DNA of 64,000 bases from the sequence record NC_102531.1; one strand, given 5' to 3'. Source of the stretch: a phage. This document shows, one piece after another, positions 26,131-30,007 of the stretch. Within the stretch, counting starts at the first letter, position 1. The number at the start of each line of letters is the position of its first letter. A program made the translations under genes and the position numbers. Below the pieces are notes generated by a model. It ran no database searches. It was not told where the DNA came from and saw only the letters and a list, made by a program, of their open reading frames with translations.

Positions 26131-27252
26131 TTAGATAAAACGCTTGAACATAGAAGGTGATGAGATTGATGGAATCACACAAGGAAGTGCTACCTCCTCT
26201 TTCTCCAGGAAATTAATCGCAGAAGCTACACAGTCAGCCCAGTCGTCTTTTCTGTTAAATGTTGATCTTTCCCCGTTGAATTTTTCAAGTTCGGTCAGAA
26301 ATGCTTCCAGAGTATCAGGATGGAAACTGGATTTTACAATCCTTACCATTCCTTGTTGGGCAAGATTGGCAAAAGGTGAGAACCTTGTCAGTTTAGACTT
26401 GTTGGAAGGCATTGGGTCTTCTTCAACCCTAAACCCTTCGGCAAGCAAGGATCTGGAGGAGGTTAAGAACTCACTCTTACCTGCCTGACCGGGGTCCACA
26501 GAGAATACGATTATACAATCATCACCATCAAACTGCGCCTGTTTCCTGATGATCACATCTCGTTCACCAGCCTTTTTACAGAACTTACCTTCCAGACCTG
26601 TGGAATACCTCCCGTCATCCACGTTCTCAGGACAATAATCCCCGGACAGGTAATAAAAGCCGTCGCTATCTTTACTTACCTTAACACTGGCGGTAAAGTC
26701 AGGAAATTTATTACCGGAAGTTCTCTCGGTTCCTGCTTTATCCCATGCCCTGCAAGACACTGATCCAAGGGGTACTCTATCGGCATCACGAAGGAAAGAT
26801 CTTTGAAAATAGTTTGCACCCTCAGGCTTTGCAAACCAGTTACCATGGAGAAGCTGAGCTTTTTCAAGCTCGGGCAGACCTTCAAGGAAAGCAAGGTATT
26901 CTGGGTTGTCTCTCAAGCAGACAGGATTATCGAATATTGTTGCGCCTATAAACGAGAATGACAACGGTCTCGGCTTGATCTCTACACCCAGTCCGTTAAC
27001 AGTGGTGTATTTCTCTATCAACTCTTCTTTAGAGTCTCCCCAGATAAATTCACCGTCGCGTCGGATAAAATATCTTTTCTTACCGCATTTCTCCGGATCT
27101 GGATACCCCTCATCGTCCAACCACCACCTAACCAGTTTGGCAAGCATGTGTTCTGAATCGGGGTTACAGCTGATAACCATTCTTGATGGATACTTTGACT
27201 GAGATCGCAGACGAGACATCAGGTAGTCTATCTGCTCCCATTCGAATTGTGT
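26131..27252 (-). CDS. terL: terminase large subunit, exon 2 (nuclease domain)
   Basis: Reading frame open upstream of the annotated Met back to the predicted 3' splice site; joins in frame to exon 1 (…MVCFDEG|TQFEWEQIDYLMSRL…). Confidence 0.6.
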   Translation of the reverse strand, partial: TQFEWEQIDYLMSRLRSQSKYPSRMVISCNPDSEHMLAKLVRWWLDDEGYPDPEKCGKKRYFIRRDGEFIWGDSKEELIEKYTTVNGLGVEIKPRPLSFSFIGATIFDNPVCLRDNPEYLAFLEGLPELEKAQLLHGNWFAKPEGANYFQRSFLRDADRVPLGSVSCRAWDKAGTERTSGNKFPDFTASVKVSKDSDGFYYLSGDYCPENVDDGRYSTGLEGKFCKKAGERDVIIRKQAQFDGDDCIIVFSVDPGQAGKSEFLTSSRSLLAEGFRVEEDPMPSNKSKLTRFSPFANLAQQGMVRIVKSSFHPDTLEAFLTELEKFNGERSTFNRKDDWADCVASAINFLEKEEVALPCVIPSISSPSMFKRFI

Positions 27253-28134
27253 CGTTTATGTTCGGGCAAGGTCGCTAGTCTTGCCCCGCCATTTTCAGGC
27301 AGCTGCATGTCTCCATGCAGACCAGACTATATCTTATGAATGTGTAAATACTCTGCCGCTCTAAGAATAGTTTCCTCATCTTCTTGGAAGAAACCTAAAG
27401 CTCTGTTGCATTTATCACAAAGCAACCCTCTTACAGCACCAGTTTTATGGTCATGATCAACACAAAAGAAATCTCTGTACCCTTGCATCCTATACTCATT
27501 AAGAGATATTCTACAAATGGCACACTTATGATCTTGATCTGAGAGTAGACGATAGTATTCATCTTTTGTTATGTGAAATTTCTTCTCAATCTGATAAAAC
27601 TTTTCACACATCTTACACCTGTTCGTAACCAGATATACTTTACCATAGTCACGTTTTGTGTAAAAACTATCAGCGAGCATACTTTCATGACAAGATTTGC
27701 ATTCAAAAAGTTCACCTTTCTTCAGCAAGTCTTGAATAAACAATGCTGCGTCATCTCTCTTAACCATATTTTTATTTTTACGAGATCCACCCTTCCTGTA
27801 GTACATATAGCATTCCTTGCATGTACCTGAGTATCCATCCTTGCTCTTAGATGATAAAAAGAAATCATCAATAGGCAGAACTCTTTGGCAATCCATACAT
27901 TTTTAGTATTACACATTCACCCTCCCGTTTCGAATCGCTTGATTCTACGTCTTTCGACTAGTCGTTGAACGTTCATCCTCTCGGATGCTTCGCTGCGGAT
28001 TATCTAAATTAACACACTGTTACCCTACCTTCGATCTCTCTTCGAAGCCTCTATTATGTTACCATAACAGGTTGGTGGTGTCAATAATAAAGATTTCCCC
28101 GCAATTAGGGAGGTTTTACGAGAGCTACAAATTA
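27253..28134 (-). mobile_element. group I self-splicing intron carrying an HNH homing endonuclease gene, inserted in the terminase large subunit gene
   Basis: Exon 1 ends GGU followed by in-frame UAA; minus strand contains UAAUUGCGGGGAAA (P4-like), GUUCAACGACUAGUC (R/P7 5' strand) and AAGAUAUAGUC (S/P7 3' strand) with GACUA/UAGUC complementarity; internal ORF 27327..27896. Confidence 0.7.
27327..27896 (-). CDS. intron-encoded HNH / Endonuclease VII-like homing endonuclease
   Basis: 189 aa; Cys-rich N-terminus with CxxC pairs; C-terminal CVDHDHKTGAVRGLLCDKCNRALG matches the T4 EndoVII-type His-Me finger; stop codon lies inside the intron S element. Confidence 0.7.
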   Translation of the reverse strand: MDCQRVLPIDDFFLSSKSKDGYSGTCKECYMYYRKGGSRKNKNMVKRDDAALFIQDLLKKGELFECKSCHESMLADSFYTKRDYGKVYLVTNRCKMCEKFYQIEKKFHITKDEYYRLLSDQDHKCAICRISLNEYRMQGYRDFFCVDHDHKTGAVRGLLCDKCNRALGFFQEDEETILRAAEYLHIHKI

Positions 28135-28560
28135 ACCCTCATCGAAGCAAACCATGGTGTACTCAAGACCCTGATGGTTAAGCTTATCTTGCACATACTC
28201 CATATGGCAGTATTTTACAACAGCTCCCTTTTTGCTTCTATCCCACTTACCAGTGTTCGGATCAAACCGTGGAAAAATGAACTTATGATCCTTCTCTCTG
28301 AACTTTGGCTTAATGTTTTCAGGCAGATCACTATAAATAGCTACTGCTTTAGGCCATAGTCCACCCTCACCTTCCAACTGTGGGGTTGTTCTTCGGAACA
28401 TAACCACAGAGCTGTGTGGGTCATCAATAATTTTAAGTGGCATCAACTGCAAGAGGAACGACTTGCCAGACCCTGCGGCACCGCCGATTACCAAGATATC
28501 TGCATCGTTTTCGAGGATCATCTTCTGCTTTTCAGAACACGGTCCGTAAATCTTAGACAT
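28135..28560 (-). CDS. terL: terminase large subunit, exon 1 (ATPase domain)
   Basis: Walker A VIGGAAGSGKS, Walker B MVCFDE; ORF ends with stop right after the predicted 5' splice site. Confidence 0.8.
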
Positions 28561-28847
28561 TAACCTCTCTCCTTTGGAAACAGTGTTCTAATATAGTCTT
28601 GCAAAATGATCAATTTAGCTCTATCATTGCTACAAGACAGATTATTATCCCTCATAATGCCAGAATTCACTGCATCTGGCGCACCTTTCTTCAAAGGCAT
28701 AGCTTTAGCAGGTGGTTTCATGGCACCTTCTGGGGGTTTAACAATCAACCTTCCTACATCCGGAGGGTCAATCTTGTATTCTCTCTCAACGCTGGTTGCA
28801 CACCCACATAATAACAAGCACGCAATAAACAGTGTGGCAACTCTCAT
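28560..28847 (-). CDS. outer-membrane spanin (Rz1-like lipoprotein) candidate
   Basis: 95 aa; N-terminal signal with Cys (LLLCGCATS), proline-rich mature part; overlaps end of upstream coiled-coil membrane protein. Confidence 0.45.
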   Translation of the reverse strand: MRVATLFIACLLLCGCATSVEREYKIDPPDVGRLIVKPPEGAMKPPAKAMPLKKGAPDAVNSGIMRDNNLSCSNDRAKLIILQDYIRTLFPKERG

Positions 28848-29908: not shown

Positions 29909-30007
29909 GGTGCTAGGTGATGGAATCGAACCACCTATGTATTCAACGACTACCTCGTCTATTTTCAGGATTAAAAATCCTCGCCCTTGCCAAAGGGCTT
30001 ACCTAGC
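29909..30007 (-). tRNA. aberrant tRNA-like element (anticodon unresolved; possible UUU loop)
   Basis: Perfect 7 bp acceptor (GCUAGGU/ACCUAGC), D arm GCCC/GGGC and T arm GGUGG-UUCGAUU-CCAUC, but ~99 nt long, anticodon region is a palindrome GGAUUUUUAAUCC, ~30 nt extra arm, 3' end ACCU rather than CCA. Confidence 0.35.

Follow-up and report, generated by a model that had tools for sequence, protein, structure and literature searches.

The 64,000-nt stretch of DNA analyzed here (sequence record NC_102531.1; the window) comes from a Vequintavirus, an rV5-like coliphage. Its minus strand carries the genes for the i-spanin, the o-spanin, the large terminase subunit (TerL), and the portal protein in that order, the same as in rV5, with a tRNA cluster upstream of the TerL region. 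The 2.5-kb region around TerL shares 98.7% identity with that of Escherichia phage inoa, and many other Vequintavirus coliphages are 95 to 98.5% identical to it over the same region. The start codon of TerL overlaps the stop codon of the o-spanin gene in the sequence ATGA (28560, minus strand), and the o- and i-spanin ORFs overlap as well (28844..28847, minus strand). TerL is therefore part of an operon in which the spanin, TerL, and portal genes are tightly coupled.

In several GenBank records, the o-spanin is wrongly called "putative large terminase subunit." The tRNA cluster includes a tRNA-like sequence of 99 nt (29909..30007, minus strand), which ARAGORN returned as tRNA-??? with a four-base anticodon (atcc) and which reached an Rfam tRNA score of just 35.5 bits; the corresponding place in the rV5 RefSeq record (locus L014, 7224..7320) has no tRNA annotation. 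It might be a tRNA that has degenerated, or one whose anticodon loop is unusual or that contains an insertion. Under the name "Campylobacter phage," GenBank has about 18 records (MG065646-MG065677, host C. jejuni) whose TerL is 97 to 98.5% identical to that of E. coli rV5-like phages, and their host labels look doubtful, be it by contamination or by mislabelling.

In the window, TerL is encoded in two pieces. The first (28560..28135, minus strand) comprises 142 codons with the Walker A motif GGAAGSGKS and the Walker B/catalytic motif MVCFDE, ends in GGU, and corresponds to positions 147-273 of the PHROG 979 profile. The original prediction had this ATPase part stop directly after GAG GGU, and the ORF (28560..28132, minus strand; 142 aa) is indeed closed by a TAA codon right after GAG GGT. 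The second piece (27252..26131, minus strand; 373 codons plus a stop codon; PHROG 979 positions 274-621) encodes the rest of the ATPase and the RNaseH-like nuclease domain. Its frame is open from 27255 (minus strand), in agreement with the predicted resumption of TerL about 880 nt downstream. Joining position 28135 to 27252 (...GAUGAGGGU to ACACAAUUC...) yields a conceptual, in-frame TerL of 515 aa that reads ...MVCFDEG^TQFEWEQ... at the junction (^), or, further into the second piece, ...MVCFDEG^TQFEWEQIDYLMSRL.... On this conceptual spliced protein, Terminase_6N spans the junction (residues 25-294; 72.2 bits, cut-off 22), and Terminase_6C matches residues 394-489 (27.9 bits, cut-off 22.6). 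A phmmer search of the same protein against PDB sequences gave no match at E<=0.01.

The insertion lies between codons 142 and 143 (Gly142/Thr143), in phase 0 and one codon past the catalytic DE of Walker B. This position can be read from natural alleles. Seven intronless alleles have the sequence ...TTCGATGA(G/A)GGC^ACGCA(G/A)TTCGAATGG... and are contiguous exactly at the predicted junction, and six intron-bearing alleles read ...GAGGGT^intron^AC(A/G)CA(A/G).... The insert therefore separates codon 142 from codon 143 precisely and neither adds nor removes a codon. The ligated exons (600 nt, conceptual) match many sister phages as a single uninterrupted piece, the uninterrupted TerL of AlexBoehm is 1548 nt long, equal to the conceptual splice product, and the PHROG 979 profile is gap-free across the junction, between its positions 273 and 274. 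Intact TerL homologues had been proposed as the means of placing the junction, and they put it where it was predicted. At the exon-terminal position (-1), 6/6 intron-bearing alleles have a T and 7/7 intronless ones have a C, as expected if a U is needed at this position for the wobble pair of helix P1. At the other end, G27253 directly precedes ACA CAA; the intron ends in omega-G.

Other boundaries were considered and rejected. A splice site shifted by -1, with exon 1 ending in ...GAGGG and the intron in C, would still encode E-G-T-Q, but it breaks the rules of an exon-terminal U and a terminal G, and it is also contradicted by the T at -1, which tracks the presence of the intron. A shift by +1 changes the protein. 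An intein or a translational bypass was rejected on the basis of the in-frame stop codons in the insert and its full ribozyme core.

The insert itself (28134..27253, minus strand; 882 nt) starts with a U at 28134 and ends with the G at 27253, both boundaries being defined by the intronless alleles. It is read as a group I intron by its match to the Rfam model, and as IA-type by its helices P7.1 and P7.2. RF00028 matched it over the full model (positions 1-253; 28144 to 27303, minus strand) with 44.3 bits, at E=1.1e-9 when the region was searched and 5e-8 for the whole window. This falls below the curated gathering score of 50 bits because of a 563-nt endonuclease insertion in the P8 loop. As a result, the whole-window Rfam scan at the default gathering threshold reported tRNAs only, and the intron was recovered only in the E-value mode of the search. 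An ORF-less form of the same intron, 319 nt long, scored 84.0 bits in RudolfGeigy and 84.9 bits in rV5, above the gathering score. The reading of the insert as a group I intron, originally made from a few motifs, is thus upheld by a full-length match in the window and by the scores of its ORF-less sisters. The core has the same length in all alleles, with 214 nt on the 5' side and 83 nt on the 3' side of P8, and its sequence is nearly identical among them; position 118 of the 5' part is a window-only substitution (G, versus T in six other alleles). No further group I intron, for example in the DNA polymerase gene as in LL12, was found in the window at E<=0.001.

The secondary structure of a group I intron can be traced through the insert (all positions on the minus strand). 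The intron starts with UAAUUUGUAGC. In P1 (28140..28120), the exon sequence GAGGGU plus the intron nucleotides UA (28140..28133) pair with UAGCUCUC (28127..28120), the internal guide sequence being GCUCUC; the 5' splice site has U28135·G28125 as its wobble pair, and the minimum free energy of the helix is -8.6 kcal/mol. The 5' strand of P3, CCUCCC (28113..28108), is complementary to the 3' strand, GGGAGG (27926..27921), which doubles as the Shine-Dalgarno sequence of the canonical endonuclease start at 27916. The P4-P6 domain (28107..27966) was delimited by the covariance match, folding, and the comparison of alleles. J3/4 and P4 begin it as UAAUUGCGG (28107..28099), which pairs with UCCGCA (27999..27994) to give P4 as UGCGGG/UCCGCA. 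A long P5 extension (28094..28003) includes a GUAA-capped hairpin, and one compensatory change (U-A to C-G or the reverse) was seen in the P5 hairpin among seven alleles. P6/P6a is a hairpin at 27987..27974.

The 5' strand of P7, GACUA (27963..27959), lies within element R, GUUCAACGACUAGUC, and its 3' strand, UAGUC (27329..27325), within element S, AAGAUAUAGUC. P7 and P3 would form the pseudoknot of the core, as judged from sequence complementarity only, neither pair varying among the alleles. The motifs from which the core had been predicted, from the intron start through J3/4 and P4 to R and S, are present where they had been placed, and GACUA and UAGUC, proposed as the strands of P7, are indeed complementary. 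Two hairpins, P7.1 (27958..27949; GUC-GAAA-GAC) and P7.2 (27945..27932; GAAUC-AAGC-GAUUC), stand between the 5' strand of P7 and the 3' strand of P3. Peripheral helices at this place are typical of subgroup IA, to which we therefore assign the intron by the established classification. P8 (27918..27338) has a stem of 14-15 bp (27918..27905 with 27352..27338), and its loop holds the endonuclease gene: the 563-nt insertion takes the place of a 22-nt P8 hairpin in the ORF-less alleles. Between the ORF-less and ORF-containing forms the P8 stem is swapped en bloc, and it is complementary in both. A P9 hairpin with a GAGA loop (27320..27303) and a P9.1-like hairpin (27286..27264) follow, after which the 3' tail runs to G27253, the end of the intron; P10 is a weak pairing of about 3 bp (ACA/UGU). 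When GAAA was put in place of the ORF, unconstrained minimum free energy folding of the core recovered P1, P3, P4, P5, P6a, P7.1, P7.2, P8, P9, and P9.1.

The gene in the P8 loop is a putative endonuclease VII-type HNH (beta-beta-alpha-Me) homing endonuclease (27896..27327, minus strand; 189 aa in the window). It lies between R and S, as the original prediction had it, and its TAG stop codon (27329..27327) is inside the 3' strand of P7. Residues 103-185 match PF02945 (Endonuclease_7) with 76.4 bits against a cut-off of 23.6, the ORF includes the motif DHDHKTGAVRGLLCDKCN (DHDH...CDKCN), and its relatives in the PDB are Hpy99I and T4 endonuclease VII.

The start of this gene is altered in the window. 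All relatives in the database (27/27) start 21 nt further upstream and encode 196 aa (MCNTKKCMDC...), from an ATG (27916..27914, minus strand) that stands four nucleotides after the Shine-Dalgarno sequence GGGAGG. Beyond this canonical ATG, the window has a run of five A residues (27904..27900), where 27/27 relatives have six. The 1-nt deletion is unique to the window among 28 copies and puts the canonical start out of frame, so that the ATG opens an ORF of just 64 aa in the wrong frame (27916..27722, minus strand). The leftover 189-aa ORF starts at an ATG with no Shine-Dalgarno sequence and is missing the first Cys of the N-terminal CxxC...CxxC pair. With its Shine-Dalgarno-equipped start frameshifted, the endonuclease is therefore probably poorly expressed or crippled, and its impairment in NC_102531.1 is likely unless the A5 run is a homopolymer sequencing error. 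The run could be either such an error or an early decay mutation. That the window has caught the first step of homing-endonuclease decay, with the Shine-Dalgarno-equipped start cut off and the ribozyme core intact, is possible but on balance doubtful. The description of the insert as an active homing element, part of the original prediction, is accordingly doubtful for this phage, whose canonical endonuclease start departs from that of every relative.

Could TerL instead have been split by the insertion of a free-standing endonuclease gene, its two parts being translated separately and reassembling with no RNA splicing? The stop codon at the end of exon 1 is a genuine one, and many GenBank records of the genus list two separate "terminase large subunit" CDSs along with a "recombination endonuclease VII." Endonuclease-associated interruptions that do not splice are documented in phages according to PMC7344957, which recounts the case of Aeromonas phage Aeh1, whose NrdA is split by the HNH endonuclease mobE. 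However, the group I core in TerL is complete, and the alleles with no endonuclease at all score 84-85 bits; since sister phages carry this bare ribozyme form, the interruption is not an endonuclease cassette. Exon 2, moreover, does not open with a start codon. The first ATG in it (27219) comes 11 codons in and lacks a properly spaced Shine-Dalgarno sequence, and a protein begun there would be missing conserved residues that the TerL profile shows to be contiguous. The perfect tracking of the intron by the exon-terminal T is expected for P1 but not for a split gene. We consider a split TerL very improbable.

We are thus highly confident in reading the locus as a TerL gene interrupted by an 882-nt group I intron of subgroup IA that carries an endonuclease gene in its P8 loop. 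Of this explanation, the anatomy of the sequence, the match to the covariance model, the exact position of the junction, and the polymorphism among alleles were observed; the splicing, the activity of the endonuclease, and its homing are predicted from them. An even slimmer chance falls to a real intron that is splicing-defective or decaying in this phage, or to assembly errors in the record, so that the expression of TerL would be compromised or the record unfaithful. The homopolymer deletion inside the intron and the substitution at position 118 of the 5' part of the core, each unique to the window, would fit such an account. Yet TerL is essential, and a viable phage must express it; all of the core helices are intact, as are P1 and the terminal G, and they do not otherwise differ from the alleles of many independently isolated viable phages. 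The deletion affects the P8 loop and not the catalytic core.

For a functional intron, we propose the following course of events. The intron would fold once the late operon of spanins, TerL, and portal has been transcribed, with P1 bringing the exon-terminal U (28135), held in its U·G pair, to the P7 core, which binds guanosine. The intron would be released in two transesterification steps, the cut at its 3' end falling behind the terminal G (27253), and the joined exons would form an mRNA for the 515-aa TerL. This protein would have the same length as TerL of the intronless sisters, where it is contiguous across the junction. In sister phages, the endonuclease start would use GGGAGG, and intron folding and translation would compete; given that this Shine-Dalgarno sequence is also the 3' strand of P3, folding of the ribozyme and translation of the endonuclease should be mutually exclusive. 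Presumably, the endonuclease acts in mixed infections by cutting or nicking TerL alleles that lack the intron, which would then be spread by recombinational repair. In NC_102531.1, the frameshift of its start would probably leave the enzyme scarce or crippled in this role.

We also evaluated how the intron is distributed in the genus, with record counts that are approximate, as the database contains duplicates. At an identity of at least 90%, the exons have matches in about 119 records; 52 records contain the full intron, and 27-29 of the 52 contain the endonuclease gene. Sister genomes show the other states: some lack the intron at this site, some have it with an intact endonuclease gene, and some have its ORF-less form. 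This presence/absence polymorphism among genomes that are >94% identical is consistent with mobility. A second group I intron site lies about 300 nt downstream, within exon 2. The window has no intron there. In rV5 (locus L014, 3884..4900) and HdK5 (locus L003, 2173..3165), the second site is occupied by a 979-nt intron with a different, bIL170-like HNH gene, and in RudolfGeigy (locus L005, 1735..1961) by a 268-nt ORF-less intron (95.6 bits). With this site occupied in some sisters and empty in the window, the intron content of TerL is combinatorially variable in the genus.

The TerL intron has already been published for rV5 and is annotated in phages of the BASEL collection, and finding it here is correct but ordinary. 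The paper on rV5 (Kropinski et al. 2013, Virol J 10:76, PMC3606486) has a section on "Introns in terminase" and describes TerL as three segments, with one of the introns carrying a homing endonuclease and the boundaries set with the help of D. Shub; the RefSeq record (NC_011041) gives rv5_gp065 as a 3-part join. rV5 and the window share the same intron in the same gene and genus, at the same insertion site (GGT^ACA), with a near-identical core. Unlike the window, rV5 has the 319-nt ORF-less copy and, about 300 nt downstream, the second, 979-nt intron with the HNH gene rv5_gp066. The genome announcement of LL12 likewise mentions predicted introns in TerL and DNA polymerase. Among the BASEL phages (Maffei et al. 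2021, PMC8594841), DrSchubert, WalterGehring, HeinrichReichert, and MaxBurger carry the same intron with the endonuclease VII-type gene in P8, at 98% DNA identity to the window and with 187/189 endonuclease residues shared, and their records give TerL as a CDS joined from two parts, between which a "putative homing endonuclease" is annotated. Their intron differs from that of the window in its length of 883 nt, its A6 run, and its 196-aa endonuclease. The frameshift at the endonuclease start, specific to the window, is the sole new detail.

A literature search for splicing data on Vequintavirus returned papers on Certrevirus only. TerL of Pectobacterium phage CB7 (Certrevirus, Vequintavirinae) has an intron whose splicing was shown by RT-PCR (Buttimer et al. 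2020, PMC7344957). Like the intron of the window, that of CB7 is group I-like, accompanied by an HNH gene, and located at Walker B of a homologous TerL; it matches RF00028 weakly over the full length (35.2 bits). Its insertion site is, however, 6 nt upstream (VD^EGTQF versus DEG^TQF), its sequence is different, and it carries another HNH ORF, of 166 aa. The site and the sequence rule out that the intron spliced in CB7 is the same element as that of the window, and because CB7 has a different intron-endonuclease pair, its splicing is only an analogy. The intron of CB7 (locus L013, 385..1350) sits between the D and the E of Walker B. The introns of CB7 and of Vequintavirus point to independent targeting of the same catalytic motif.

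More distant parallels are known. The T4 td and nrdB introns belong to subgroup IA2, and the endonuclease of the td intron, I-TevI, is of the GIY-YIG type. In BLAST comparisons, the 3' part of the intron in the window (P7' to P9) was about 82% identical to T-even td introns over about 80 nt, and its R/P7 region was about 72% identical to the nrdB intron. The T4 introns, too, have an ORF in a peripheral loop, but they differ in host gene, endonuclease family, and P5 extension. A historical precedent is the terminase group I intron of Lactobacillus phage LL-H (Mikkonen and Alatossava 1995, as cited in PMC3606486), which likewise interrupts a phage large-terminase gene; LL-H is an unrelated siphovirus of a Gram-positive host.

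Group I introns with homing endonucleases have thus been known in phage terminase genes since the 1995 work on LL-H, and the locus adds little that is biologically new. Its practical value is for annotation: many records of the genus list TerL as two fragments, and the default threshold of Rfam misses the ORF-containing form of the intron (44 bits, with the cut-off at 50). As the locus shows, homing elements target an essential gene at its most conserved catalytic motif. In related genera, two different introns sit 6 nt apart at Walker B, and all stages of the homing cycle coexist within a single genus. If the A5 deletion is true, the TerL locus of Vequintavirus would be a compact natural system for the study of the homing cycle, from invasion through degeneration to loss, and it could also serve to study the competition between P3 folding and endonuclease translation, as the Shine-Dalgarno sequence is the 3' strand of P3.
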